Positions 8,605 to 50,372 of a stretch of 64,000 nucleotides of DNA are shown piece after piece. The stretch's first letter is position 1. Each line of letters opens with the position of its first letter. This stretch comes from an uncultured Ignavibacteriaceae bacterium. GTDB lineage: Bacteria; Bacteroidota; Ignavibacteria; Ignavibacteriales; Ignavibacteriaceae. Both the position numbers and the translations under genes were made by a program. Under the pieces are notes generated by a model. The model was given only the letters and a program-made list of their open reading frames with translations, had not been told where the DNA came from and did not search any database. The stretch spans positions 2,023-66,022 of the forward strand of contig CAZQSR010000001.1 of the NCBI GenBank assembly GCA_964596145.1. The letters are read 5' to 3'.

Positions 8605-11600
8605 TTATACAATTAATTTTATATATTGATTTGTAAATAATCCATCAGTTAATGTATTAGTAGAATCCAAATATGTTTTAAAAACAAGTCTATTATTTTC
8701 AAATCCTACGTCTGTACTATTTTCTACTGTAAAATAAAACTTACCAGCAGGACTATAAATAATTTGATTAGCTTGTGGGCAAGTAAAACTAGTTATATGT
8801 ACATGAGGATTTAATACTGAATCAAAAGTTAATTCATAAACTCCTACTCCTGTTCTACTTCAAACACCATCATATCACTCTTCCGAAAGTAATGTGTTAT
8901 CTAGAACTATATGAGTTGGGTCTAAAGTAGATGTTTGTGATACAGTAAAGGAGTATACTTTATACGAAGTTTTTTTTCCGTCTAACACTCAATCTGATAT
9001 AGAGTCAGTTCCAAAAGCAGTATATGTATCTTTAGTTCCCTTATTAAATCATCTCTGACCAATTCTATCGGGTATTGAGCTAGGCGATGTAAAGGCAGAA
9101 ATAACGTTATTTTCTATAACATCATTTAAATTTGATCCATCAAGTGTAATTATACTACTAGTTTTTATTTTTGAGTTATTTTTGAACACAGTAATAAAAT
9201 CATCTGCAATACCTTCTCTAGATATTTTTATTTTATCTCCAAATTTAGAAATATTTTCAAAGGTATTGATCATATTTATCTGTTCAGGCGTATTTAATAA
9301 TATTTTATATGTATTATTTCCAGTATGTCAAATATTATAATTAGATATAATTAGGGATAAATTTTCTACATCATTTATAAAAGACAATACCCAATTTATA
9401 TCAATAGTATCTCATTTAAGAGGTTCTAATAATGTTATATCACAATAAAATTCATCTTCAAATAAATCACTTGGATATACTTTTAGTAAACTTGTTTCAT
9501 GATAATTAGGAACAATCTCCAATAAATTATCTGAAGTAGTTTTTTGAGCATTTACTCTAGACAGAGCAGGTAAACTACTACTAGTAACAACATCTCCTTT
9601 AACTCCAGATAATTCTATAATTCTTTGCCAACCTTCTTCATTTTTCTTTCATTTTCTCGTAGTCCCATTAAAAGTATGTTCATAATATTCTCCAATTTCT
9701 GCATTGGATGGAGGACTAAAGTTAGAATATTCTTTTTCTTTAGTTACTTTAAATAGGTATGTCGAAGAAGTATAGATTGATCCGTCAACTAATTTTACAA
9801 AAGATTTTATATAGTAATTCCCTACAGTTTCTTTATTAAAAGTAAATACAATTGGACCAGATTTTCAAGAAGAAAGTTGTACAGTATTTCAACTAGACTC
9901 ATCTGTACTTCATTGATATCCAACAACTTCTATTTTACTTTCATCACTAACTGTTGAAGACATTGTGAAAGAATAGTCAGTAATAATTGGAACTGTATTT
10001 GCAAAACTAAATGATGTTATTTCCCCTGTCGTAACTGCACTTAAAGTGTTAGACCAAGTCCATCCTAATGGAGTCTGATAATAGGAGGCAAAATAATAAG
10101 CTGTTCCAGCCTGAAGTCCACTGAAAGATATAAGGAATTTTTTAATAGAAGGAAAATTATTAATGAATTGTTCATTAACTTCTTTATATTCTAAAGATAA
10201 ATCATCAACAGATCCTTCTGGATCTACTATAAGACTTGTAGACATAGCTATTCCAGCCCTTAAAATTTTACCAGTATAGTTAATAATACTAGATTCTAAG
10301 TTTATAACACCCTTTGTAAATGATGTCATTCCTATACTAATTTTATTACTTTCAGCTGTTCCCGAAGAAGGATCTTCTGTTTTAAAATATACAGATTTTG
10401 AATATCCAAAATTAGTTTGATTTGATCTACAAAATGCAGCTATATGATATACTTTTCCTAAAGTTAGTCCTGTTATTTTAATCCCATATTTTCCTGGAGT
10501 TGTCGCATTTCCTATTTGGTATTTTAAAGTGTAAGTAAATGGATCTACAGAACTATCTATTGGTCTATCACTTAACACTATACCAATGCTAGTTATTGGT
10601 AAACTGCCTACTGATTCTATTTCTACAGAAGTTATAAATTCTGTATGGATTTGTGCTGGCAAACTTCCCAGTAAAACAGTTGATGGAGTATTAGTTATTA
10701 CTGATGAATCAGAAACATTCAATGTAGTAAATGTCTTATGTTCACCTCAAACGTACCCATCATTAGTTCTTACAAAAGCTCTATAACTATATACTGTCTT
10801 AGGACTAAGACCAGTGATATTACTACTAAAAATCCCTCTACTAATATCATCACTAGTTATCACAGTATCAGATAATGTTGGAGATGCTATTCCAGACCTT
10901 CATACAAACCCTTTTTCTATAACATTAAGATTATCAGTTACTTCTAATTTTAATTCAGCTGAATTAAAAGTAATTTTATCAGGAGCAAGAGTTCTTACTG
11001 CAGTAATTCTTATTGGGCCTGAAGAAGTAGTTATTTCTTTTTGTGCTCCATACCAAGTACCTACATAAGAAATAGCATAAGGTCTGAAGTAATATTTAGT
11101 TGCTGGATCTAAATCTGTAATATCAAAAGGAGCTCTTGCTGATGGCCCATTATAGAAATCAGCAATTTTTTTATTATTAGCAGTAGTTGGCATAGGTAAC
11201 TTAGAATAACATACTCCTCCCTCAATTATACTAGATCCTCCATCATCCATAACTTGTATAGCCATTCCGATACTAGTATCTTCAACTCTAAAAATATCAG
11301 TAATATTTACAGTCCCAGCTACAGCAGAATCATTTCTAGTGTATGCTATACAGTCTCCATCTCATAACATATATCCTGGACCTGTAAATTCATATCCACC
11401 CTTCTCAATAATTGGATAAATAACTCTATTGTCTGAAAGTATAATATAAGTTTTAAATCAGTAACTTTCATTGTTAAGTAGTCCAGATATAGTTATTTCT
11501 TCTGATTCACCAATGTTATTTAATTCTATATATGGGTCAGTATTAAGATTAGGAGATCTTCCTAACGAAGTCTTACAATATACTATACCTGCACTAGATA

Positions 11601-12915
11601 TAGAAGGGTCTCCTTTTATTCAAGCCATTCTAAATGTTAGGTAGTCTACATCTCTCCACACTGGTCATTTTGCTCCAAAATATAAAATAGGATCTTTGAC
11701 TCCAGTAAATGCAGATAATTGTGCGGAGTCTGAATATCATTCACTAGTAGTATCTAAGTCAAAAGATTGCCCATCTAAAGATAGAGGTGAATATTCTATA
11801 TATGTTCTGAAATAATAATTTACTCCAGCCTCTAGCCCAGTAATTGCAACATAACTTTCATCATGCGTATTATTTTTATATCTATTGTCTTCTCGATATC
11901 CAATAGGTCAATTTTTCCAGGAACGGTTTTCAAATAATTTAGATTCTAATACTCCTGTACCACCTATTACTGGATTAGGGTTAGTTTTATGTGCAAGCAC
12001 TCGTACTTTTGTAGGAACTCCTCCAACTCAAGACCAGAGAGGTTGTATCTTAATCCAAGAACTTTTTGGAGGACTTCCATCTAGAAAGGTATTTTTTGCA
12101 TCCTTATATATTATTTCAGAATCCATTTTTGATTTATAATTTAACATATATAAATCTTCTAAATCAAATCTTTGGCCTTTTAGATATTCATTAGTTAATT
12201 TTCCTCCAAATTTAATTAACATTTCTTGTACATCTGAATAATCTAGGTAATCAGGATCAATACTTTTACGATATAAATCTGCAATATAATCACCATGGTA
12301 ATAAAAACTTCCATCTGGAGCACGATACTTACTGGAGTGTTCATAAAAATCATAATTTCCATATCCGTATCCTAAACCACTCATATTTCTCCACCCGTGA
12401 TCAAATGATAAATCTAATCCTAACTTACAAACGTCACTTTCTTCCATAAACTCAACAGTATTATCAGTAAATCCTTGTAAGTTTATTTCTAATTTTTTTA
12501 TTACCATTCCAGTGTTTCTAGCCCAAGAATGTAAGTATAAATCTACTTCTACCAAATAAAAATCATCAACTACTCTGTAATTACCAGTACATTTACCTAT
12601 TATACAATTTCTAAAAGCTCTTACTGTTCCAGTGCCTGCAGCTAAAGATTCTAAAAACTCAATATAATTTTTATATGGAGAATTATAAAATCTTCGTTTA
12701 TAATCCTCGTACATATAAGGTACTAAATCCTCAAAAGCAGCATACCCTTTAACAAATACTGTTCCTATTTCAGAATGTGATAATTGAGTATTTATAGGAT
12801 CAGTATAGGCTGGGTCATCAGGAGGAAGAACAGTATTTTTAGCTACCATTACTTTCCCTGCAATATCTTTATTATACCTATCTCAATTTGGATACTTTAA
12901 TTCTATTTTATTCAT
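8605..12915 (-). CDS. giant tail-fibre/adhesin-like protein with FN3/Ig-like repeats (1436 aa under code 4)
   Basis: Track fragments 12028..12849, 10900..11265, 9910..10722 and 9049..9273 share one frame. I scanned all inter-fragment codons and found about 20 in-frame TGA and no TAA/TAG, down to TAA at 8605-8607. ATG at 12913-12915 sits right after the upstream stop. FN3-like signatures recur (TKYYFRPYA, GTAYYFASYY, GKVYHIAAF). Confidence 0.75.
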
Positions 12916-12916
12916 A

Positions 12917-13171
12917 TTATATTTCTATTCATTGGTCATTAACTCTAGTATATTTTATTCCTGATATTGTGGATATTCAAGTAGATCCTTCGACTGCCTC
13001 TAATCCATTTTCGATTGCTGATATTGCATCATATATACTTTTAATAAGATTTTCTTTTGTGATTTTATATCCTACAGGTGGATTTCCAGAAATTACATAA
13101 AGATATGCATTATTTGGAATTTCTAATATTTCTGGTAACTGAGAAAGTTTGACTCCTTGCAATTCTGACAT
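12917..13171 (-). CDS. hypothetical small protein (84 aa under code 4)
   Basis: Track ORF 12977..13171 stops at TGA. The frame continues through a second TGA (12929-12931) to TAA at 12917-12919. Confidence 0.6.
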
Positions 13172-18278: not shown

Positions 18279-21200
18279 TTACTCCCTATGTACCTCTATT
18301 AACATAGCCCCAGTAAGAATAGATGATCCACTAGTAGCAGTGCCAGCATCATTTATAGATCTAAATCCTAAATATACAGAAGGACTAGTAAATAGTGGAA
18401 TTGTTTGAGCAACAAGAGATGATGGGCAAACAATAGGAGTTATTTTAGAAGTTTTAAATATTTGAGTAGTATTGTTTTTAACAGATATTACTTTTTGAGC
18501 TATATTGTTAGTAAATTCTTGTGCTTTATAAACTGCATCATTGGATGGAGTAGCTGTTGTAATTACATATTCAATATAATAATCTTTATCTGATCTTAAA
18601 TTATGAAATCCTACTAATTGGGATAATGCTCCAAATGGAGTTCATTTATTTATATTAGCTCCTGATCCATTAACTCAAGATGCAAAATCTCCTACAGTGA
18701 ATGTTTTTCCAGTCAATTCTTCTTGATCTGGATCGGAAGTAAATCCTGAACCTAATGAAGTCCCTTGCCATGCAGGGGAAGTTTTAGGTTTTGAAATAAC
18801 AATATCTGTAATTCCACCAGTAGAATCTTTAACATTTGATATAGATACCTGTGTTTTAGAAAGTTGATTCCAAGCATTATTACCAGATGGAACATCGAAT
18901 GCAGTAAATCCAGAAGTTCCAGCAGCTCTATTAAATTTAACTTGTATTTTTCTAGATACTAAAGATGAACTATTTATCATATTTGTAACCGAAGTATCTA
19001 TAAATTGAGCTACAGGAACTCCGTATGCAGAAGTTAATGTTCCAGTACCATCATAACCAATTAATATTCCAGTACCAGAATGAGTGATAGGTTGACTTAA
19101 AGTAAGTATCAATTTCATAGGATCTGGTAAATACTCGCTAGCTGATATAGATAAAATTCTAGGCGATCCGTTATTAGGATCATACACTGTTATTTTAGAT
19201 ATAACAGAAATAGTTGTAGATAACGGTATATTAAATTGGAGTATAATTTTTTCACCAAAGTAATCGGTATTTGCAGAAAGTACTATTGGAGGATTACTAT
19301 TTTCTTCTAAAGTAGTGAATCCTATATACCCAGTAGGAGTTCCATAAGCAATTGAACTATATGGAGCTATTTTATAATAATAAGTAGTTCCTTCTAAAAG
19401 ACCATAATTAGTATAGGATCTTAACTCCCTAGCTACTTGAGCTATAAGAGAGTATGTTCCAGTTGGTGTACTAGATCTATAGATTCTAAATCCTTCTGTT
19501 ATGGACTCAAATGCTATATCATAATCCCATGTAAATTCAATTCTATTAAAGGATACTGATCCCACCTCAACATTAGTTACTAGTGGCAGTAATGCTGGAG
19601 TAGTAAATTCCACAATATTACTATACTCTGACTCAGGAAGAGCTACATCTGTATGATCTACAAATTTAGCTATAAATTTATAACTAGTATTTGGACTTAA
19701 TCCCGAAACATCATATTCTGAGGAAGTAGTTAATTGATTAACTATCTCTTCATACATTTCAGTGGAATTATTATATTTATAAATTATAATCTTGTAAGAT
19801 TCTTCATTTTTATCAGTTCAGTATAATCTTACTTCTGAAGCACTAGGTACATACGCATTTAGTACTGGTGCTTCAATTTTCTTTTTACCTATATAATTTG
19901 TTCATAATATACATGGAGTTCCATTAATTGGAACCTGTACATACTTTCCATGTGGTCCAGATATTGGTGTAAGGGTAGTAGTTGCTCCATATGAACTTGG
20001 ATAATTTTCCGCATTATTGAATGTGGTTAAATTAATTTCTAAAACTTCAGAATCTACTGCTACATGAGCCACAGTAGATGCAGCCTGCTCTTGTCCTAAT
20101 CATAAAACTATACATGGAATTTTATCTAAAGTCTCATCATCTTCATCTGGTGTAAATGCAATTCCACAAATATTTTTTAAAGTGGGGTCTAATTCATCTA
20201 CATTTATTAGTATATCTTCTACATGTGTATTTCCTGCTATTCTTAAGATATGACTAAATTTCATACCAGTTAAATGAGATACTAAATTTCTTATATAATA
20301 ATATGATGCTAAAGGAGGGTATTTTGCTGGATCACTATCCAAATAAAAATTACCATTTATATCTCTAGAATCATTAATGTAATCAACAAATCCAGAACCA
20401 AGATAAGTATTTTGATAACTAACACTTTCAAGCAAAGATTGCTGGGTATCATTTCTATACATATATTGATGTGCTGCATCTAATCCTGCTGCAATTATAT
20501 GCATATAAGATCGCATAATAAAGTCAGCTTTTAATTGCCCAAGTGTTTTGCCTGCTTGCGGATTTACAGATTGTAATGATTGTGGATGCTCATCATATCC
20601 AAACTCCCCTATTCATAATTCAAGGTTAGGTTTTTCTCGATCTCTCCAATCGGCTATGTACTTCATGGTATCATACAAAGTACCACCATCATCCATAGCT
20701 TTATTTGGCTTTATGCTGTCAGGTGAAATACCCTTACGTGTAGCAGCATTTGTCTGACCTCCTGCAGTATTATGATAATAGTGAAAAGCCATAACATCAA
20801 ACGGATATACATCATACCCAGGTTCAGTTCTGTTACTTTCAAACCACAGCATCATTCGTTTTATATAGCCACTATTTTGGCTTTTCAGTCCTGGCAGTAC
20901 AACCTTCATTGTAGGATCTGCCTGTTTTATCCCAAACCCTGGCCCGAGCTGTCCCATATGACCATCATAACAGGCCGATACCATAGCTGCTAATTCTTCA
21001 GGATGATAGTAAGTATCTTGACTCTCGTTCCAATTTCTATCCGGTTCATTTTCTAATTCTATATATTTAACTAAATCTAATCCTTGCAATTTAGTGTTAC
21101 TTGGATCAACAGCCATCAAACTTTCATTTAATCCAGTAGCTCGTCCATATCTAGCTGTGAATGTGAATAAAAATTGAGAGTACATTCTATAAGCTCAAGG

Positions 21201-23369
21201 AGATCTAGAATCATATTCAGGATATACACTTTTATCCTGCATTCTATTATTTCCAACTAATGAAAACGGCCTAACATTTCCATTGGAATCAAGTCATTGA
21301 AATGGCATAGCTCCTTTAAAACATATATATGTAGATGTTGGAGCAGCCCCATACTTATTGTCAAGTAATATTTTATAATCTTGTAATTTTTGATCTAAAT
21401 CACCTTGTACTCTATTATTACTAAATCTATAAGTTATTTCGCCATTTCCTGAAGTATCTCCATATAATTTTATACCTGCTTGGACAGTCTGCTCCATAGT
21501 TGGATACCATTCTCAGTTGCTGTAAAAACGGACTCTACGGCCAAAATTAGCTACATCAGAAATTATATTTGTAAAAAATGCATTAGTACCTGCAAAATAT
21601 TCAAATCTTTGTTTTGGTCTAAGCCCTCCAATTTTACTACCTGTAGGCAAAGAAGCTTGTAAACTTGCCCCATAAACTGCAAACTCTCTAATAGCTACTT
21701 CTGATGGGAATGTTAGTCTTATATACCTAGCATAACTATAAGCTTCTGGTATAGGTACAGTTAACCAAGTATCTTCAGTCTCATATCCAGATACCGTTGC
21801 AGCATGTGCAAAATTAGCTCCTAAAGAAGATGTCCAAATATGAATATGCTCTACTATTTTATCGTAATTTATAAATATACTATCAACTCGTTTTATCTCC
21901 TTTAGATCTATAATTAATTCGTATGGACTATAATTAGTTCATGTATTCTTAAAACCTGTATAAGTCATAGCAAACATTCTGTATCCAACTTCTGAAGTTT
22001 CCTGAACTATTCCATTCTCTTCTACGATATTACCATTAACCATATATTCAACTTTGTAATAGTCTCCAGGAGAACCTCCACTTTCTGCAGGAACTTCTTT
22101 TAAATGATGTAAAAAATCGTATACATCATATTTTGTAACTGGTAAAACATATCCGACTGTAGATGGCATAAAAACATCATCAGTTTTAGCCATTACTACG
22201 TTAGAAAGTAGTCCATATTTATTCTTTGCAAATCCTGATACAGCAAAGTAATATATTTTTCCAGAATCCAATCCACTTATTATGGTAGACATCTGAACTC
22301 CATACGGCATTATTCCTGAAGTCACATCTATATAATTTGCTGACAAATAATTATTTTCTGTTATTTCTACCGTAGAATAATATATTCTATACTTCTCACA
22401 AAGATCTTGATTACCATGAGCACCAGCTGCAGAATAGTGAAGCATTATCGATTTAGAACTTATTAATGCCACACTTAGATTATTTATCCTAGACGGGGGT
22501 CTGCCATAATACTCATTTCTATCAAGAAATCAAATAACACAAACATCGGATGGTGTTACTATCGGTTGAGTAAGAGTTATTGTATCCGAAGCTATGGTGT
22601 AATCTCGCAAAGGAAATAAAAGAATACCATTTACATATATAAATACACCATCATGAGATTCTGGAATACTACTTGTAGTTATTTCAATTACTGAACCGGT
22701 AAAATCATTGAAATTTTGCCGTGCTGAAAAAACTTCCTGTAGTGACGGTATTACTTCAATTGGGATTTTTCCTTCAGGCGAAATCACCGGAAATCCCCCG
22801 ACAGCATTTGCCATTGCGTCTACCCCCTCTTCAATCTGTTTGAGCGTTTTAGGAGTTTCACCTTCCGAGTATCCGTGGTCAGCTTTTGCATTCAACACTT
22901 CAGGAGACATTTCACCGCCTGCTATTAAATCAATTTCTTGTTCAAGCTCTTTGAGTGTTTTAGGAGTTTCACCCTCAGAATATCCGTGATCGGCTTTAAA
23001 TGATAAATCAATATTTGTTAATTGGGCTGCTGCATCTACTGCAGGCTTTTGTAATCATTCTAGATACTCTTCTTGTGTTTTTCCAATGTTATCTTCTTGA
23101 GCTACCCAAATCTGATAGGCACTTAATCCCGGAGCTCCACTTAAGGAATTTAATCACTCAGATTCAGTGCCAATATATCCAGACCTTTTTGCTAAATCAT
23201 ATGGATTCTCTGTAATTTTTTTCCATTTAGACTCATTACCAAAATCAGGAGTATTATTATCTGTTAATGATAAATAAGCTCTTCCATTTATACTAACTAA
23301 ATCTAAAATACTATACGATGTTAAATTGTTAGGTTTTGGAGTTATTGCTATTTTTAGTTCTATTCTCAT
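18279..23369 (-). CDS. giant fibre protein with FN3-like repeats and a GH5-like glycosidase segment (1696 aa under code 4)
   Basis: Seven track fragments (23154.., 22530.., 21939.., 21294.., 20613.., 20100.., 18675..) share one frame. All gaps were scanned: 13 in-frame TGA, no TAA/TAG, down to TAA at 18279-18281. ELENEP plus following motifs in 20613..21185 resemble the clan GH-A (GH5) acid/base region. FN3-like repeats occur in 18675..19757. Confidence 0.75.
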
Positions 23370-23824
23370 TCTATTATTAATTTGCCATCAGTAAATTCTA
23401 CATCTACTACTGAGTCGTTATAATTTAATACATAAGTACCTTCCTCAGGAACAAAATATCCACTAAATAATTCAGATTCTTGATCTTCTGATAATTCTCA
23501 AGTTACTGATTTTGGATCATCATAAACTCTTTCCCAAACTTTAGCATTCTCTGGAATACTTGCAGAGGAATAGTTTAAATTTGGAGTAATAGTTGGTAGA
23601 CTTAAATTAGAGTTATTTAGTATTAAAGAATTCATTAAGTTTTCTACCTTTACTTTATCTTTCTCTGATATATGATACCAGTCTGCCCATTGATAAATAA
23701 TATTTAGTACTTTTAAAGTATTTAAGTCCTTTAATGTTTTTTTATTATTGTTACCTAAATACTGTAAATCATATACCATTTGTAAAGTAGTGTCAATAAT
23801 TGAATTTGTATATTTCTCTTTCAT
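23360..23824 (-). CDS. hypothetical protein (about 154 aa under code 4)
   Basis: Track ORF 23498..23839 stops at TGA. The frame continues through another TGA (23366-23368) to TAG at 23360-23362. The likely start is ATG at 23822-23824 (MKEKY), or alternatively 23831-23833. Confidence 0.6.
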
Positions 23825-36234: not shown

Positions 36235-36261
36235 TTACCTCCTACATTCACGTTTAGTTTG

Positions 36262-36334
36262 CTCCCTTGCCCCGACTCGAACAGAGACTTACGAATTTTG
36301 AAGATTCGCGTGCTAACCATTACACTACAAGGGA
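36262..36334 (-). tRNA. tRNA with anticodon UCA (reads UGA); Trp-like opal decoder
   Basis: Hand-folded cloverleaf, 73 nt. Acceptor UCCCUUG/CAAGGGA (7 bp). D arm GUGU-AAUGGUUA-GCAC. Anticodon arm CGAAU-CUUCAAA-AUUCG, with U33 and UCA at 34-36. Variable loop UAAGU. T arm CUCUG-UUCGAGU-CGGGG. Discriminator G73, no encoded CCA. Confidence 0.9.
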
Positions 36335-40352: not shown

Positions 40353-41798
40353 TTAAAATTTAAATTTATAATATGTTTCTTTCATCTTTTTTCTTGTTTT
40401 TCTTGTTTTAGTAAATGGTGGAAAATAATCTTTAAGTGTTGTACCTGAAAATTCTATTCCTAATTTTAGAAAATCTTCTTTGAATAATTCCTCAAGTTCT
40501 AAGTAAGTGTATTCTCTATTTTCTAGTTTTTCTTCTATCCAACTTGTTTGTGGTTCTTCAGTAGCGCAAGTAAAACCATTCTGTTCAGCTTCACAGATAA
40601 CACTAATTGTGTTTTTATAAATTTCACTGATTAATTTGTAATTGTATTCATCCACTTTTCGAAGATTGTCATCATAAAAGATTTCATTCTTGATTTTGTT
40701 TAAGTACATTGAATACCAAGTTTCTTTATTGAATAGTTTCAATTCTGTTTGTCTAAATAAATCATCCGGGTCTTCTTTAAATTTCTGTTCTCGATATTTA
40801 CCCATCTTTATATTTTCTTCTACATTGGCTTTGAATATTGTTTCTGAAGTTCCAACGTATCGGTGTTTACTAGTGTTTAAAATTAGAGTTATTTCATTTT
40901 TAAATTTAGAATCTCGTAACCTGCCAGAAATTTGTCTTATTAAAGTTGAAATATCAAGTACAGTAGTTGAAATATTAGTATCACTAAGAATAATTGTTTT
41001 ACCTATTGGATCATATATATCACACCCTTCAAATGCTGTTGCTGTGTAAAAGTTATATTTACAAGGAGGGTCAAGAGTAGATCCTACTTTTAGAGTTTTG
41101 ATATTAGCTTTAGAAGATTCCGAGCAAACTATTTTATAATCTGTTATTCCTGACTTTGTAACAATATCTCTAATTGTTCGCACCGAATTTAAAAAGATGT
41201 GATAGTTATATTCTGTGGGTTCTATCAATATTTTCAAAAGGGCTTTACTAGTGAAAGCTGTGTCAATTATATTTAATTTTATAGGAATTGCTCTTGTCCA
41301 ATGTATAGATATTCTTGGAAGATGTTTAATTTCATCAAGTATTATATCATTATTTAAAGGTGTAGCAGTCATAAAACAGTATCCTAAGAATTTATTGTAG
41401 TTCTTTAATAAAAAAAGGATAGCGTCGTTTCGATACGCATAAGAATTAAATAATATATGATACTCATCAATAAGTAAAAAGTAATTAGTAAGGTCTAAAT
41501 TGATTATTTTGTTCAGTGCATCATAAGTAGCAATAATCTTTTTATGTGGAATGTTAGAAGCTAAGTATCGTTCTATATCTTTTTCTTTAACTTGTGCATA
41601 TACTATAAATCCATCTTTTGATTTATTTTTAACAAGCTCAACAGTCGGAACTAGTATGATTGAATTTCTTGGTGAATGTAATTCAACATATGTACCTCCG
41701 CATCCTGTAACTCCTTTATTTAGTAAAACTCCAGAAGGAAGTTCAGTCATTATTTCGGAGAGATATGTTTTATCTGTTTCTATTATTGTTTCGTTCAT
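40353..41798 (-). CDS. SF2 helicase-like protein (481 aa)
   Basis: GVTGCGGTY (degenerate motif I), LLIDEYH (DExH motif II) and MTATP (motif III). Confidence 0.55.
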   Translation of the reverse strand: MNETIIETDKTYLSEIMTELPSGVLLNKGVTGCGGTYVELHSPRNSIILVPTVELVKNKSKDGFIVYAQVKEKDIERYLASNIPHKKIIATYDALNKIINLDLTNYFLLIDEYHILFNSYAYRNDAILFLLKNYNKFLGYCFMTATPLNNDIILDEIKHLPRISIHWTRAIPIKLNIIDTAFTSKALLKILIEPTEYNYHIFLNSVRTIRDIVTKSGITDYKIVCSESSKANIKTLKVGSTLDPPCKYNFYTATAFEGCDIYDPIGKTIILSDTNISTTVLDISTLIRQISGRLRDSKFKNEITLILNTSKHRYVGTSETIFKANVEENIKMGKYREQKFKEDPDDLFRQTELKLFNKETWYSMYLNKIKNEIFYDDNLRKVDEYNYKLISEIYKNTISVICEAEQNGFTCATEEPQTSWIEEKLENREYTYLELEELFKEDFLKLGIEFSGTTLKDYFPPFTKTRKTRKKMKETYYKFKF

Positions 41799-41908
41799 AT
41801 GTTAAAATTGGGTATTTAATGATTAAAGTCAAAATCTACCGTGTCCGCTTGCGTATAGGAGTTGGTGTGTCCACCTTGACGCGGAGTAGGGCGTGGCCTT
41901 TTGAAATA

Positions 41909-41916
41909 CAAAGATA
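41909..41916 (-). promoter_or_regulatory. -7 promoter box TATCTTTG
   Basis: Plus-strand CAAAGATA, about 110 nt upstream of the helicase-like gene, leaving a G+C-rich leader. Confidence 0.45.
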
Positions 41917-41980
41917 ATAATTTTTTAATTGAGAAAAGTGTGAATGGGCATAGTTTGGAAAATTAGATTGGAATTAATTG

Positions 41981-42000
41981 ATTGCTTTAAAATTTTAAAT
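41981..42000 (+). repeat. 20-nt box ATTGCTTTAAAATTTTAAAT (copy 1 of 2)
   Basis: 19/20 identical to 45591-45610. Both copies sit at the left edge of a non-coding stretch. Confidence 0.8.
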
Positions 42001-42222
42001 TTTTTTTATTTTTTGGTGAAGGTTTTGAGTGAGAGGTGGCCCCCTGGGTTGAGAGTTTGGATTGATGGGAGATTTTAAGGTTGAGGAGAAAATTTTTAAA
42101 ATTTTTTGTGTTGAGGGAGGTCGTGGTCTGTTTCTTTATTTCCCCCTAGGCTTGTTGGCAGGGAAAAGCACTTTGTTTTAAAAATTTCCCTACAAATTGT
42201 TTAACATCAAAAAATTATTAGA

Positions 42223-42864
42223 ATGAGTAAAAATTCAAAACCGGCAACAGCACCGGTAACAATGGAAAAGATTACGGCCTCAACAGTGGAGGCTATCACA
42301 AAGTTAAGGACTGATATTTTTCAGTCTGCAAAAAAGGTCGCTAATAGTGCAACAAGTTTTATCGGTTTGCCAAAAAGCGGAACGTTCAGTACTATCGGAG
42401 TAATGATTTATACCAAAAATTCCCAGGGCGGAATTAATCCTGAAATACCAGCTTTTTTAATGGATAGTAGCCACGTTCCAAACAAAGATATTTATCTTTA
42501 CAGTTTGGGACTGACCACTGTTGAGGGCGGTTTTATTTCAGAAAGCGCACTAACAGCGCAAATGTTAAAACCTGAACTCACTACTATCAAAAGTGGAGAA
42601 AATTCTGGAAATTTCACCCTAAAATCTGAACGAGTTACTAATTGGGATAACGAAACTTTAGGCTATTCAGCAAACGAAAGGTTGAAAAATCTGGAGGGCA
42701 AAAGTTTTGAAACTGAACCCGTAACAGACGCACGAGTTTGGCAACAAAAGGTTTTGCAAAATTGGGCAAAACAAGCGGTTGTAACACAAAATACGCCTGA
42801 AAAGTTACAAACGTTATTGGATAAAACAGAGACTAAAAACTTATATAAGTTTAGTTTAGTTTAG
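42223..42864 (+). CDS. hypothetical protein (213 aa), in the G+C-richer island
   Basis: Intact ORF ending in TAG and followed by the hairpin AGAGCAATC/GATTGCTCT plus a T-run. Confidence 0.7.
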   Translation: MSKNSKPATAPVTMEKITASTVEAITKLRTDIFQSAKKVANSATSFIGLPKSGTFSTIGVMIYTKNSQGGINPEIPAFLMDSSHVPNKDIYLYSLGLTTVEGGFISESALTAQMLKPELTTIKSGENSGNFTLKSERVTNWDNETLGYSANERLKNLEGKSFETEPVTDARVWQQKVLQNWAKQAVVTQNTPEKLQTLLDKTETKNLYKFSLV

Positions 42865-45208: not shown

Positions 45209-45514
45209 ATGAAACAATTCATTAACTGTACACCTCACGCCATTGTACTTAACGATGGTAGAGTATTCGAACCTTCTGGTTCAGTAGCTCGAGTGAGTAC
45301 TTCATTTACTGACTTTGCAGATGATGTTTGCATGGTTAAGTATGGAGAACTTACAGGAGTTCCTGAACGTCAGAAAGACACAATGTACATCGTATCTTCG
45401 ATGGTACTTGCGGCTTCTGATAGAGGGGATTTAGTAGCACCAGCTACAGGACATCCTGACTGTGTCAGAAATGACAAAGGTCAGATTGTTTCTGTTCCTG
45501 GCTTTGTATACTAA
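45209..45514 (+). CDS. conserved-looking small protein (101 aa)
   Basis: MKQFINCTPHAIVLNDG...ARVS...VSSMVLAAS...GQIVSVPGFVY. The upstream 45 aa of the track ORF look non-coding. Confidence 0.6.
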   Translation: MKQFINCTPHAIVLNDGRVFEPSGSVARVSTSFTDFADDVCMVKYGELTGVPERQKDTMYIVSSMVLAASDRGDLVAPATGHPDCVRNDKGQIVSVPGFVY

Positions 45515-47497
45515 TACTCTGTGAGGTCCAGAATATAATGTGAATAATAGTAACATTATCTGGTGAAGGGATTGCAACCTTTATTACTCAATTGCTTTAA
45601 AATATTAAATCTACTCAATAGGGTCGAAATTAATCATGCGATTTAACCAGTTATGTTGGCATGGCTAGAGTAGTGTTTTAGTATAAAAATCTTTGATGCT
45701 GCGAATAATCTTCGTTCATAACAGCACAAATAGTCCGGCAGGTCGAAAGCCCTGTGACGAAGATCAAAGATTTTTTTCAATAATTATATCAATAGCATAG
45801 GTAATCCAATGCACACGAAAACTATTAAATTCTCCGACTATTTAAAAATAGGAAATAACACCTTAGACGTGTGGAAGCCAGTGGTAAGATTAATAGTGAC
45901 TTAACCGTGTATAAACTATCAAATACTGAACTTGAAAGGTAAACATAAGAACTGACTCGGAAAGTAGTAAGTAATTGATAGTTTTAAAAAACTTAATAAC
46001 TTCACAAGTCATTGAGTGCACCAGTTTCTAAAATCCGATTCTAACTAGTAGAGTAATAATTGGTTTAGTTTTAGGTGTAAAATGCAAAAGCTGTCAGTGA
46101 GTTAAACTGAATAGTTATACTTAAAGTAAGAATAGGTATAATGACTTAATGTTCTTGCAATCTGATTAATCCAGATTATCTAACATCTTTATAAATAGTT
46201 GCAAATGTTTATAAAGCTCTGGAAAATATGAATACTGAAAGTTATTCGACTTTGTGAGCAACCAGATGTCTCACGTGTCGATAACACCATCATATTGAGA
46301 TTAATTCATATGATGTTTTAAAAGACTTCCTTCAACAATTTTACCTTGAAGTTGTAGGATTAAATGAAAATACGGTAGTCCGTTAGGTAAGCTTAAAATC
46401 CAAATAAAAGTCTAAACTCACCACCAATGAGCAAAGATTTGAAAATGGTAGATATTGACAATTATGGTGATTGTTAGTATTGAGTATTAAATACAATGCT
46501 GTATCTTAATAAAATATCTCTGGCTCGGAGAATAGAGAATGATAATATGATTCACAAAGTATTATCATTCTCTATAATTAAATTATGTAGGTTTTGGTTG
46601 ATACAAATCTCTCAAAACAAATTACTCCGGCGAATAATGCCGCCTGCCGGAATTTAAAAATTAGAGAATAATCCCGAAGTTAAGCACAGATAGCGATATG
46701 TGTGGAAGATAGGGACAGCAACTGAAGTAAGGATTGATAGGAAGCTGAACGAACGAATCCTAGTGCGATGGTCAAAGACATTGCATGTTACAGTAGATTA
46801 AAGAGGACGCTCAATAATAGACTAGTAATTTATACAATAGACATTGATTTAATGATGCCAAGTAACTGTTCCAACAGTTCATCATTAAAATGGAAATCAA
46901 TTATATTGCTTTGCACACTAAAACTTGTATGGTGTGAATATTGTAATGTAGCCAAGGACTGTTCTAAGCCAGTGTAAATACAGACGACAATAAGACCAAC
47001 AACTTATACATTCAAACTAAAATGTATAGTTAAATCGATCCTAGAACTAGAAGTCTTTCTAGGCTGTTGGAATAGATAGAGTTGGAAATAAGTCCAGTGA
47101 TAACTACTAAGATCGTATCACTTTCCTCCTAATTAGTTCTTATTAGTTGGTGTAACTATTCAGTTTATAATTTGCTGCTTGCAAATCCTGGGACTCAGGG
47201 AATGATTAACATATTATGTTATGATTAAAGCGGGGCTAAATTACGTAATATATGGAGAGTATGCCATATTATTCAAACTACGTAAAAGTTTGTTGGAATA
47301 CCTGAAACCTTAGTTTGATTCTCTGTAAGGTGGAGGAAAAGAGAATAAGTAGTCATAAAATGTCTAAAGTTGGAAGATATATGATGAAGAGATAAAAATT
47401 GCTAGTAATAAAATTTTAATACACAAGCCATAAGCTAGCTGGTTAACTTCTGTGTATTATTTTAATATGAATTTTAAACTCAAAAAATAAAAAAATT
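45515..47497 (+). ncRNA. ORF-free, hairpin-dense 2-kb region: candidate large structured ncRNA(s); strand assumed from flanking genes
   Basis: Stops are frequent in all six frames, and the only track ORF is a weak 69-aa one. There are many long perfect stems, for example AGAGAATGATAATA/TATTATCATTCTCT (around 46533-46575), AAATCTTTGAT/ATCAAAGATTT enclosing nested stems (around 45690-45780) and AATGATG..ACTGTT/AACAGT..CATCATT (around 46851-46890). A terminator-like stem plus T-run lies at around 47425-47470. Confidence 0.45.
45591..45610 (+). repeat. 20-nt box ATTGCTTTAAAATATTAAAT (copy 2 of 2)
   Basis: 19/20 identical to 41981-42000. Confidence 0.8.
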
Positions 47498-47875
47498 ATG
47501 ATGGAAGTTCCAACTTGGAATCAAATTATTACTCTAATAGTAATATTTGGTTCAGCTGTAATAGCAAGGCAGTTGATTATCTCAAAAAAATCTGTTTCTT
47601 TAATAGATAAAGTAATAATTAAAATATTATTACACTATCTTGAAAACACAGATTATTGGGAAACTTATTATTGTACTGGGTTATGTGATTTTGTGGGTGT
47701 TTTGAACAAAGAAACAAAATGGGCTAAGTTTCCTGGTATTTGTAAAATAATGCTTAACTTTATTAATAGTAATTTTCCAAAAAACTCATATGGTGTTTTT
47801 TGGTTCGAACCAACGGATAAACAAGTTAGAATTGATTACTTAAAGAAATTATTGAATGAAGAAGTTAATCGATGA
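47498..47875 (+). CDS. hypothetical membrane-anchored protein (125 aa)
   Basis: Intact ORF with an N-terminal hydrophobic segment. Confidence 0.65.
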   Translation: MMEVPTWNQIITLIVIFGSAVIARQLIISKKSVSLIDKVIIKILLHYLENTDYWETYYCTGLCDFVGVLNKETKWAKFPGICKIMLNFINSNFPKNSYGVFWFEPTDKQVRIDYLKKLLNEEVNR

Positions 47876-49703: not shown

Positions 49704-49871
49704 ATGAAAGAACAGAAACTAACTAAAACTGATAAAAAAATATTAGCTCATAGAGCTTTTATATCAGTGTGTCAAAAATCAAATTCATATCCTGTTTGGA
49801 TGCAAGAATATTTTCGTAATGATTTAGATGCTTATAATAAAGCTATAAATCGTAATGAAATATTAAACTAG
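49704..49871 (+). CDS. hypothetical small protein (55 aa)
   Basis: ATG 2 nt after the previous stop. Ends in TAG and is followed by the nested hairpin GGGTTCC..CCTTC/GAAGG..GGAACCC (49877-49912). Confidence 0.5.
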   Translation: MKEQKLTKTDKKILAHRAFISVCQKSNSYPVWMQEYFRNDLDAYNKAINRNEILN

Positions 49872-50043
49872 TTATTTTTTGGGTTCCAATCCTTCTTCTG
49901 AAGGTGCGGAACCCATTAATTTTAAATTTACTAACCCAAAAAATACAAAAACATGGACGCATTAATTATTAACGGTCACCAGTTTCTCATTGATGATGAC
50001 AACAACCTTGGAGATTTTCAACGTAATCATACTCTAAACTAAT

Positions 50044-50229
50044 ATGAAAGACTGGTATGATGAAATGGTAGATGATCTACTAGAAGTAGGTACTCCACAG
50101 TTTATTGAAAAGGTTTATAATGGAGAATATCAAGAATATTGGTATCAAATTCTTCATGCTGAAGATAATATCAAAGCAAGACCTTACTTTCAAGAAATTT
50201 TTCAATCATTTTTAAACGCATATGTATGA
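50044..50229 (+). CDS. hypothetical small protein (61 aa)
   Basis: Intact ORF ending in TGA in an ATGA overlap. Confidence 0.55.
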   Translation: MKDWYDEMVDDLLEVGTPQFIEKVYNGEYQEYWYQILHAEDNIKARPYFQEIFQSFLNAYV

Positions 50230-50372
50230 AAATCTTAGGTAGTCTTTTTGTTTTAGGATTAGCAATTTTATTTGCCATCTTAAAAATTACAATTGCATCA
50301 TTTATCCTTTTTATAATAGGATTTGTTTTATTAATAATCCAAGTAAAACTATGTTATGAGCAAGAAAACTGA
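50226..50372 (+). CDS. small hydrophobic protein (48 aa)
   Basis: ATGA overlap with the previous gene. The sequence is almost entirely hydrophobic, with two TM-like stretches. Confidence 0.45.
   Translation: MKILGSLFVLGLAILFAILKITIASFILFIIGFVLLIIQVKLCYEQEN

Follow-up and report, generated by a model that had tools for sequence, protein, structure and literature searches.

The window analysed here is a 64-kb stretch of DNA from a crAss-like phage. In its early gene block, on the + strand, an earlier note had picked out positions 45515-47497, ahead of a gene that starts at 47498, as two kilobases without an open reading frame (ORF) and packed with long perfect hairpins. It had put the stretch forward as a candidate giant structured RNA, with an array of several small RNAs as the fallback. 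We find that it belongs with the ribozyme-associated non-coding islands of crAss-like phages, as a variant whose modules are mostly unclassified. More specifically, we read it as a chain of independent small structured RNA modules within the early + strand block, a reading to which we give a probability of roughly 0.7. The fallback of the earlier note is supported, and it gains in precision because the equivalent islands of related crAss-like phages consist of Hatchet, hammerhead, twister and RAGATH RNAs in arrays.

The absence of ORFs was borne out under each of the genetic codes compared (11, 4 and 15). The longest stop-free run in the six frames of 45515-47497 is 78 codons with code 11, 78 with TGA as sense and 80 with TAG as sense, each frame containing 39-66 stops, and this is the lowest maximal open frame of all 2-kb windows in the 64 kb (the next lowest reach 128-144). 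ORFs of 30-69 amino acids (aa) are present on both strands, and none of the short island ORFs (up to 69 aa) has a PHROG or Pfam match. The G+C content of the island (31.9%) is above that of the downstream genes (26.8%) but below that of the upstream genes (35.8%), so that the earlier statement that it exceeds its flanks holds on one side only. The elements with comparative support, together with the hairpin that precedes one of them, are:

45688-45780, + strand: module X, about 93 nt, with a 13-bp outer stem, an inner CTTCG/CGAAG stem, a CAGG/CCTG hairpin and a U7 end
45913-45984, + strand: pre-scaffold hairpin, its perfect stem 10 bp long (AAACTATCAA/TTGATAGTTT), with TTTT at the end
45986-46085, + strand: leader element, here called the scaffold, near-invariant in crAss-like contigs, with a covarying helix round a hypervariable apex
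46127-46226, + strand: module W, about 100 nt, with the core hairpin CTTTATAAA/TTTATAAAG (46187-46216)
46939-46992, + strand: candidate minimal twister ribozyme of type P1, without P3 and P5 (RF03160, 43.8 bits, E 8.3e-8)
47036-47082, + strand: module Y, the hairpin CCTAGAA/TTCTAGG and a conserved tail, CTGTTGGAATAGATAGAGT
47135-47300, + strand: module Z, about 165 nt, directly after Y both here and in the genome that holds its homologue

The scaffold is what connects the island to other phages. When the target region was compared with 50,697 GenBank phage records, the sole DNA similarity was one 45-nt block, which is part of this split element. The block is common to 13 records, namely 12 of uncultured crAss-like phages (cr53_1, cr115_1 and cr118_1 among them; Suoliviridae where the taxonomy was checked) and one unannotated 'Bacteriophage sp.' contig, and in all three records that were opened (cr53_1, cr115_1 and cr118_1) it falls within unannotated gaps. 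Read 5' to 3', the window copy consists of an A6 tract, hairpin H1 (45992-46016), a lower stem, GCACC/GGUGU, that pairs 46018-46022 with 46074-46078, a symmetric U-rich 5x5 internal loop (AGUUU/UUUUA), a closing helix, an apical hairpin and an AAAAUGC tail. The variable apical hairpin is an insert at 46029-46067.

A pattern scan found the exact 5' module in at least 120 IMG/VR, 22 metagenome and 13 GenBank crAss-like records, one per contig, and in at least 134 loci the 3' module is present as well. The 134 loci compared share one layout: a terminator-like hairpin, of which the hairpin at 45913-45984, directly preceding the window scaffold, is the counterpart; the A-tract; H1, as CUYAAU...AUUGAG with a three-base loop; GCACC; AGUUU; the first strand of the closing helix and the insert; and then the second strand of that helix, followed by UUUUA, GGUGU and AAAAUGC. 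Since the search pattern was the 5' module only, with the A-tract and the entire 3' module outside it, the conservation of both is independent of the way in which the copies were retrieved. The inserts are of a different nature, comprising 96 distinct sequences of 8-142 nt in several unrelated families. Their first five and last five positions, which form the closing helix, pair in 95% of cells (39-52% when slid) using T-A, A-T, C-G and G-C pairs. Moreover, this helix has far more T.G than C.A pairs, which points to an RNA of the + strand. Three representatives with unrelated inserts share one minimum free energy fold that includes the symmetric U-rich 5x5 internal loop.

The window copy belongs to a type-2 sequence variant, seen in 14 IMG/VR and 22 metagenome contigs and mainly environmental rather than from the human gut. 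Neither the window copy nor the scaffold of 34 other loci matches an Rfam family. A search of 185,579 prokaryotic species genomes gave only six matches, all in metagenome-assembled genomes or short contigs, and a host sequence was rejected on this ground. In the literature searched, we found no paper on the scaffold, nor one linking ribozyme or RAGATH arrays to ORF-less crAss-like regions, and the scaffold appears to be an undescribed element. It is either near-invariant or wholly absent, and insert families mix with different flanks and vice versa (L005-L127 and L139-L169 in our numbering of loci); divergent copies with up to 7 mismatches were absent from the examined loci without the exact pattern. 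On the basis of these sequences, this pattern suggests frequent recombination or horizontal spread of the scaffold. We also observed a 13-nt perfect complementarity between the scaffold apex (46048-46060) and positions 47524-47536, at about codons 10-13 of the next gene (47498-47875). An apex acting as antisense guide to nearby sequence was rejected, given that the matches across 80 loci average 10.0 nt compared to 9.5-9.7 nt in controls, and the complementarity is probably due to chance.

The ORF-poor stretch round the scaffold measures 150-2450 nt in more than 100 loci. In the window, the scaffold lies on the strand of the neighbouring genes inside such a stretch of 1956 nt, which is near the top of this range and not unique, the longest elsewhere being those of L113 (2448 nt), L056 (2314 nt) and cr53_1 (2105 nt). 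The content of the homologous islands is informative. In 20 of the 23 type-1 loci scanned with Rfam, known RNAs, most of them above gathering scores, follow the scaffold, always on its strand: RAGATH-6, RAGATH-7, RAGATH-7-associated, RAGATH-9, RAGATH-14 and RAGATH-20 motifs, Hatchet ribozymes (one to four), hammerheads of type III and of the RAGATH-1 kind, and a twister. About half of these 20 loci also have a tRNA on the scaffold strand (a tRNA-Leu is annotated in cr53_1 and cr115_1), one (L117) has a permuted transfer-messenger RNA (tmRNA), and in L078 the RAGATH-6 motif starts one base past the scaffold end. The type-2 loci (n = 11) contain a Hatchet in one case, a tRNA in one and tmRNAs in three, and the remaining island DNA matches nothing. 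The window has no RAGATH motif followed by a tRNA: no RAGATH was found at E <= 10, and the closest tRNA gene lies on the opposite strand at a distance of 9 kb.

Several human-gut contigs (L005, L056, L113, L117, L078, L100 and others) show a recurring order after the scaffold, with RAGATH-14 and/or RAGATH-6 and then RAGATH-7 (together with RAGATH-7-associated), followed by one or two Hatchets, a tRNA, and further Hatchets and RAGATH-9 located between genes several kb downstream. These RNAs are all on one strand and are unannotated in the GenBank records that were inspected. Downstream of the scaffold in L070, L139, L045 and L117 there are tmRNA or permuted tmRNA genes.

Sensitive blastn of the island against all fetched loci returned five conserved blocks besides the scaffold. 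The core of module X is 81% identical to positions 641-698 of a metagenome contig, L146, with compensatory changes in the outer stem (AATCTTTGAT/ATCAAAGATT in the window, ATAAGTAAT/ATTACTTAT in L146) and in the inner stem (CTTCG/CGAAG versus CTATA/TATAG). Module Y is 78% identical to L146 763-813, where three compensatory pairs turn its stem into CCACAAA/TTTGTGG, and module Z is 67% identical over 165 nt to L146 820-981, several stems being kept with two-sided changes. All three counterparts lie on this one contig of 1.85 kb. Y and Z possibly form a single RNA, into which 50 nt would have been inserted in the window. Module W is 77% identical over 100 nt to a segment of L075, on the scaffold strand and 2.7 kb upstream of the scaffold of that contig; the stem is ATCTG/CAGAT in the window and ATGG/CCAT in L075, with an A-U to G.U change, and the local z-score is -3.9. 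The X, Y and Z blocks differ from L146 by indels of 1-2 nt, which excludes coding. Their arrangement differs as well, X-scaffold-W-twister-Y-Z in the window versus scaffold-ORF-X-Y-Z in L146, so that X lies upstream of the scaffold in one and downstream in the other. This separate recurrence in different order argues that the modules are independent units. All supported modules read on the + strand, as do the flanking early genes.

Pattern scans for further copies of modules X and Y gave 0 matches each, and blastn of X, W and neighbours, and Y-Z against the GenBank phages at E <= 1 returned chance-level matches only. A megablast comparison of 10 kb with the 50,697 phage records, aimed at close relatives, returned nothing. 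The separate modules were found in the contigs L146, L075 and L110.

The last of these contigs concerns the twister candidate. Covariance-model scans were run against Rfam 15, at gathering thresholds on the whole window and then at E <= 10 on 45300-47700. No family was found inside the island at gathering thresholds, and the sole notable match in the island is to twister-P1 (RF03160), at 46940-46991 on the + strand; for a self-cleaving ribozyme downstream of the window scaffold, this sub-threshold match is the only candidate. The candidate forms P1 (46939-46943 with 46988-46992), P2 (46947-46950 with 46979-46982) and P4 (46958-46961 with 46970-46973), and the predicted cut is between U46944 and A46945. 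A core that is 90% identical was found at L110 2606-2657, after RAGATH-6 and RAGATH-7 in the array of that contig. In both sequences (in the window as aligned by cmscan) the core nucleotides are present, i.e., the U-A step (UAA), GCC, the AAGC end of L4, AAA and GA. For P1 the window has TATTG/CAATA where L110 has TTAGCTT/AAGCTAA; the two differ throughout and both pair, albeit in two sequences only. P2 (TGTA/TACA) and P4 (ACTG/CAGT) also pair, but without any change from one copy to the other. Pseudoknot T2 is intact (GC/GC; G68-C52 and C69-G51), and T1 of L110 forms three of three pairs (GAU/AUC), compensatory relative to the CCC/GGG consensus.

Compared with type-P1 twisters (RF03160), the window candidate shares the P1-P2-P4 order, the core nucleotides and both pseudoknots in register, and differs in L4, which is UUCUAAGC rather than UCCCAAGC, and in T1, which has U-A, C-G and a mismatch instead of three G-C pairs. 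At 54 nt it resembles the minimal rice twister Osa-1-4 in length. These features make 46939-46992 a probable minimal, P3-less self-cleaving twister, as judged from sequence. Most twisters do have the stem that is lacking here, P3 being present in 78% of them (PMC6154101).

Several results weigh against the reading as a chain of small RNA modules. The six supported modules cover approximately 30% of the island, the other 70% having no homologue or comparative support, and X, W, Y and Z are each supported by a single homologue. The folding z-scores of 120-nt segments average -1.15 in the island and -1.16 in the coding flanks (Mann-Whitney p = 0.49). Even at E <= 10 the window gives no match to the Hatchet, hammerhead and RAGATH models; the island is not followed by a tRNA, and neither a promoter nor a terminator was identified for it. 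The twister score of 43.8 bits is 23 below the gathering score of 67.2, a shortfall that we attribute mainly to the absent optional P3 stem; T1 of the window candidate makes only two of three pairs (UC/GA; U63-A87 and C64-G86) and has a U65.C85 mismatch; and a scan for copies with a generic P3-less twister pattern of the same spacing found only L110. Lastly, the relatives L135-L138, in which the 702-aa neighbouring protein is 47-49% identical, are without island or scaffold within 10 kb.

Part of this evidence would also fit a mostly non-functional, recombination-prone spacer with a few embedded elements (the scaffold, a twister remnant that may be inactive, and terminator hairpins). About 70% of the island lacks homologues, its z-scores are at the level of coding DNA, the twister candidate has an imperfect T1, and island length and content vary greatly among similar phages, as was also reported by Yutin et al. 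(PMC7886860). However, phage genomes are compact and this is the sole such gap in 64 kb, six conserved blocks with compensatory changes stand out from a background without other DNA similarity, and the homologous islands are dense with bona fide ribozymes. We therefore consider a spacer unlikely. We regard as very unlikely an element that acts as DNA, for example an origin of replication, a site for packaging or a cluster of operators and promoters that uses cruciforms or protein-bound palindromes. It would be suited by the perfect palindrome of 16 bp at 46532-46575, by further A/T-rich inverted repeats, by the single scaffold copy per genome and by the preference of the crAss-like virion RNA polymerase for single-stranded templates (10.1101/2020.03.07.982082). 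However, the island has no iterons and no direct or tandem repeats, on which ground an origin or a CRISPR-like array was rejected; nor does the GC skew have an inflection there, and the gene-orientation switch is 3.5 kb away, at 41.8-42.2 kb. In addition, the wobble-type pairs point to an RNA of the + strand, and the twister, like the RAGATH and Hatchet elements of the sister islands, is a feature at the RNA level.

The proposal of the earlier note, one giant structured RNA of about 2 kb that folds as a unit in the manner of GOLLD or ROOL, draws on the largest ORF-free stretch of the window, on its many hairpins with an excess of long perfect stems, and on a phage that carries tRNA and tmRNA genes. 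The recommended scan with GOLLD (RF01998) and ROOL (RF03087) gave no match to either at gathering score anywhere in the window, nor to these or any other large RNA, intron or riboswitch, at E <= 10 on 45300-47700, and a scan of 46990-47500 at E <= 5 with lax filters likewise found no GOLLD, ROOL or other Rfam match, Y-Z included. Conservation is limited to blocks of 47-170 nt that are separate and reordered elsewhere, the equivalent islands of 150-2450 nt are arrays of small known RNAs, overall z-scores are unremarkable, and a self-cleaving ribozyme in the middle would split such an RNA in two. The separability of the modules and the probable ribozyme in their midst largely rule out a single giant fold, and we regard this proposal as highly improbable. 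Finally, the late-gene TGA recoding of this phage, its suppressor tRNA and the ORFs of 30-69 aa on both strands could hint at a cluster of very small protein genes or at unusual coding by recoding, frameshifting or splicing. The earlier note had named such coding as a finding that would overturn it. Yet no frame opens with TGA or TAG as sense, no family is matched, the conserved blocks differ by 1-2-nt indels and paired stem substitutions rather than in codon-like patterns, and the flanking genes are complete, with no match to an intron model. We consider coding exceedingly improbable.

Returning to the chain of modules, the island also contains hairpins and one sub-threshold match that lack comparative support:

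45529-45564, + strand: hairpin CCAG..ATAATGT/ACATTAT..CTGG, 15 nt past the upstream stop codon, without a U-run
46288-46328, + strand: hairpin CATCATAT/ATATGATG, then TTTTAAAAGACTT, a near-repeat of the boundary at the scaffold start, TTTTAAAAAACTT
46532-46575, either strand: 16-bp perfect A/T-rich palindromic hairpin with a 12-nt loop, z approximately -4 on both strands
46554-46663, - strand: drum-RNA-like match (RF02958) of 28.1 bits versus a gathering score of 43, E 0.012 in a 2.4-kb search
46848-46889, + strand: two-tier hairpin TTTAATGATG/CATCATTAAA enclosing AACTGT/ACAGTT
47417-47459, + strand: 9-bp hairpin TAATACACA/TGTGTATTA, ahead of an A/T-rich run and of the start codon, at 47498, of the gene that follows

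The hairpins listed in the earlier note are present at about the places it gave, some with altered dimensions. The stem at 45529-45564 is as described, and those at 46848-46889 and 47040-47063 (CCTAGAA/TTCTAGG, in module Y) were confirmed. Its 14-bp stem near 46533-46575 is there but measures 16 bp; the nested element at 45690-45780, our module X, has the inner stems and the T7 run but a 13-bp rather than an 11-bp outer stem; and near 47425-47470 there is a 9-bp stem. No homologues of the hairpins at 45529-45564, 46532-46575 and 46848-46889 were found among the fetched loci. As to hairpin density, long perfect stems are enriched, with three of at least 10 bp (mean of 0.4 in other 2-kb windows; top 2.5%) and 10 of at least 8 bp (5.1 in other 2-kb windows; top 11%), but the folding z-scores are ordinary. 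The island contains two junctions of a hairpin and TTTTAAAARACTT, at 45981-45994 and 46315-46328, the first starting the scaffold and the second following the hairpin at 46288-46315. Boundaries between units may be marked by them. The window has no other exact copy, and their count is statistically not strong.

The drum-like match includes a G+C-rich hairpin at about 46621-46650 and lies on the strand opposite to all other elements. Drum RNAs are described as terminator-followed and protein-associated (PMC5737381). With its score below gathering, the wrong strand, the wrong context and no terminator, 46554-46663 was rejected as a drum RNA, and the match is probably due to chance; a clustering of drum RNAs with ribozymes is not borne out by the same paper. 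The Bacteroidetes -7 promoter motif TAnnTTTG is absent from the + strand between 42 and 50 kb, sigma-70-like sites are at chance level, a canonical terminator was not found, and the island has no hammerhead CUGANGA core.

The remainder of the window conforms to a crAss-like phage. The late genes, on the - strand at 1-41.8 kb, are interrupted by in-frame TGA, and reading TGA as sense merges them, raising the codons in open stretches of at least 150 codons from 8,707 to 11,810 and giving, for example, ORFs of 1439 codons (8605-12924) and 1712 codons (18279-23417). The + strand genes beyond 42.2 kb are unchanged by this recoding, and the early genes use the standard code. Two RNA genes lie outside the island:

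36261-36334, - strand: opal-suppressor tRNA with anticodon UCA (labelled tRNA-SeC by ARAGORN)
63132-63566, + strand: phage-encoded tmRNA (RF00023, 66.5 bits)

Late-gene recoding is known from crAss-like phages (PMC7886860), and the TGA-broken late genes together with the suppressor tRNA match this pattern. The earlier note had placed tRNA and tmRNA genes near the island; both exist, but at distances of 9 and 16 kb. Other, shorter inter-ORF gaps are found at 41798-42223 (approximately 425 nt), where the late (-) and early (+) gene blocks diverge, at 49871-50356 (approximately 485 nt) and at 55201-55841 (approximately 640 nt); the whole-window Rfam scan, the only RNA search made of these three gaps, found nothing in them. 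Close relatives were also sought by way of the neighbouring proteins. Homologues of the protein upstream of it sit in unrelated contexts, the 235-aa and 702-aa neighbouring proteins have distant relatives only, without island or scaffold, and the 125-aa downstream protein has two remote homologues, both in tightly packed gene contexts. Identity look-ups for relatives returned only short Logan contigs that are 100% identical.

How might such an island work? In phi14:2, a cultured crAss-like phage, the early block has long intergenic regions whose transcript levels exceed those of most genes already at the first time point and remain high, and the early promoters of the virion polymerase have no common motif (10.1101/2020.03.07.982082). 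Since the supported modules of the window all lie on the + strand with no host-type promoter or canonical terminator separating them, and in view of early transcription in phi14:2, we propose that the island would be transcribed together with the early genes as one long precursor. The twister would then cut itself between U46944 and A46945. A type-P1 twister, like Hatchet, cuts near its own 5' end and would thereby trim the 3' end of the upstream RNA, which would be freed with a defined 3' end, while the RNA on the other side of the cut, comprising the twister body, Y, Z and the next gene's mRNA, would receive a 5'-OH end. Stable hairpins may delimit and protect the pieces, so that the structured modules would persist as discrete RNAs, and related phages would do likewise with Hatchet, hammerhead and RAGATH modules. 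Transcription, cleavage and the release of separate RNAs from the window island are thus what we infer. As a guess, the released RNAs could target the RNA metabolism of the host or the phage at an early stage of infection. The scaffold stands at the head of the arrays and is invariant but for a hypervariable apex, which suggests that it serves in cis as a leader, stabilising the transcript or acting on the polymerase. More tentatively, and with considerable doubt, the scaffold could be a new RNA class that heads ribozyme and RAGATH arrays, accompanied by three to four further new classes (X, W and Y-Z), at least one of them possibly a new self-cleaving ribozyme in the place that Hatchet and RAGATH modules occupy in gut relatives.

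Ribozyme-associated intergenic arrays were reported by Weinberg et al. (2015, Nat Chem Biol 11:606), according to the accounts in PMC6765202 and PMC6154101, which also trace to such regions the discovery of twister-sister, pistol, Hatchet and those RAGATH motifs that do not cleave. Today the arrays are met with chiefly in Crassvirales, and a 2026 preprint finds Hatchet mostly restricted to this group (10.64898/2026.03.07.710320). Clustered bacterial and phage ribozymes have been proposed to process polycistronic transcripts (PMC6765202), and the role of the Hatchet, twister, hammerhead and RAGATH clusters, known since 2015, is still called an open question (PMC6765202, PMC6154101). Separately, Yutin et al. 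noted regions without recognisable proteins in crAss-like genomes (PMC7886860), which such islands explain. Islands of this type in related gut phages are already known; of interest here are the unclassified modules, the widespread and apparently undescribed scaffold, and a defined home for the clusters, namely ORF-free islands in the early gene block of crAss-like phages that share a nearly invariant leader absent from Rfam 15. A divergent lineage has islands of the same design made from other, unclassified modules, which offer several candidate new RNA motifs. Together with the early non-coding transcripts of phi14:2, the role of the clusters becomes testable in culturable crAss-like phages.

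Set beside the Hatchet, hammerhead, twister and RAGATH arrays, the window island is likewise ORF-free, crAss-like, oriented with the genes and headed by the scaffold, and it shares with RAGATH-type arrays a candidate twister, a class that defines such neighbourhoods, and a chain of unrelated small modules. It differs from them in having no detectable RAGATH, Hatchet or hammerhead and no following tRNA, in modules (X, W, Y and Z) that match no Rfam family, and in a scaffold of type 2. With GOLLD and ROOL it has in common a large non-coding stretch in a phage with tRNA and tmRNA genes, but there is no model match and no sign of a single fold, and the conserved parts are separable. The scaffold itself recalls ENE-type elements such as those of PAN from Kaposi's sarcoma-associated herpesvirus (KSHV) and of MALAT1, a resemblance that we take as a lead only: there, as here, a U-rich symmetric loop (AGUUU/UUUUA in the scaffold) lies between G-C-containing stems, and the scaffold has A6 on its 5' and A4 on its 3' side. 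It differs from the ENE in its shorter loop and its bacteriophage origin, and the invariance of the loop stems partly from the way in which copies were retrieved. A further likeness, by published description, is to the g004-g005 and g005-g006 regions of phi14:2, which are also long, lie in the early block and are there transcribed in the direction of the genes.

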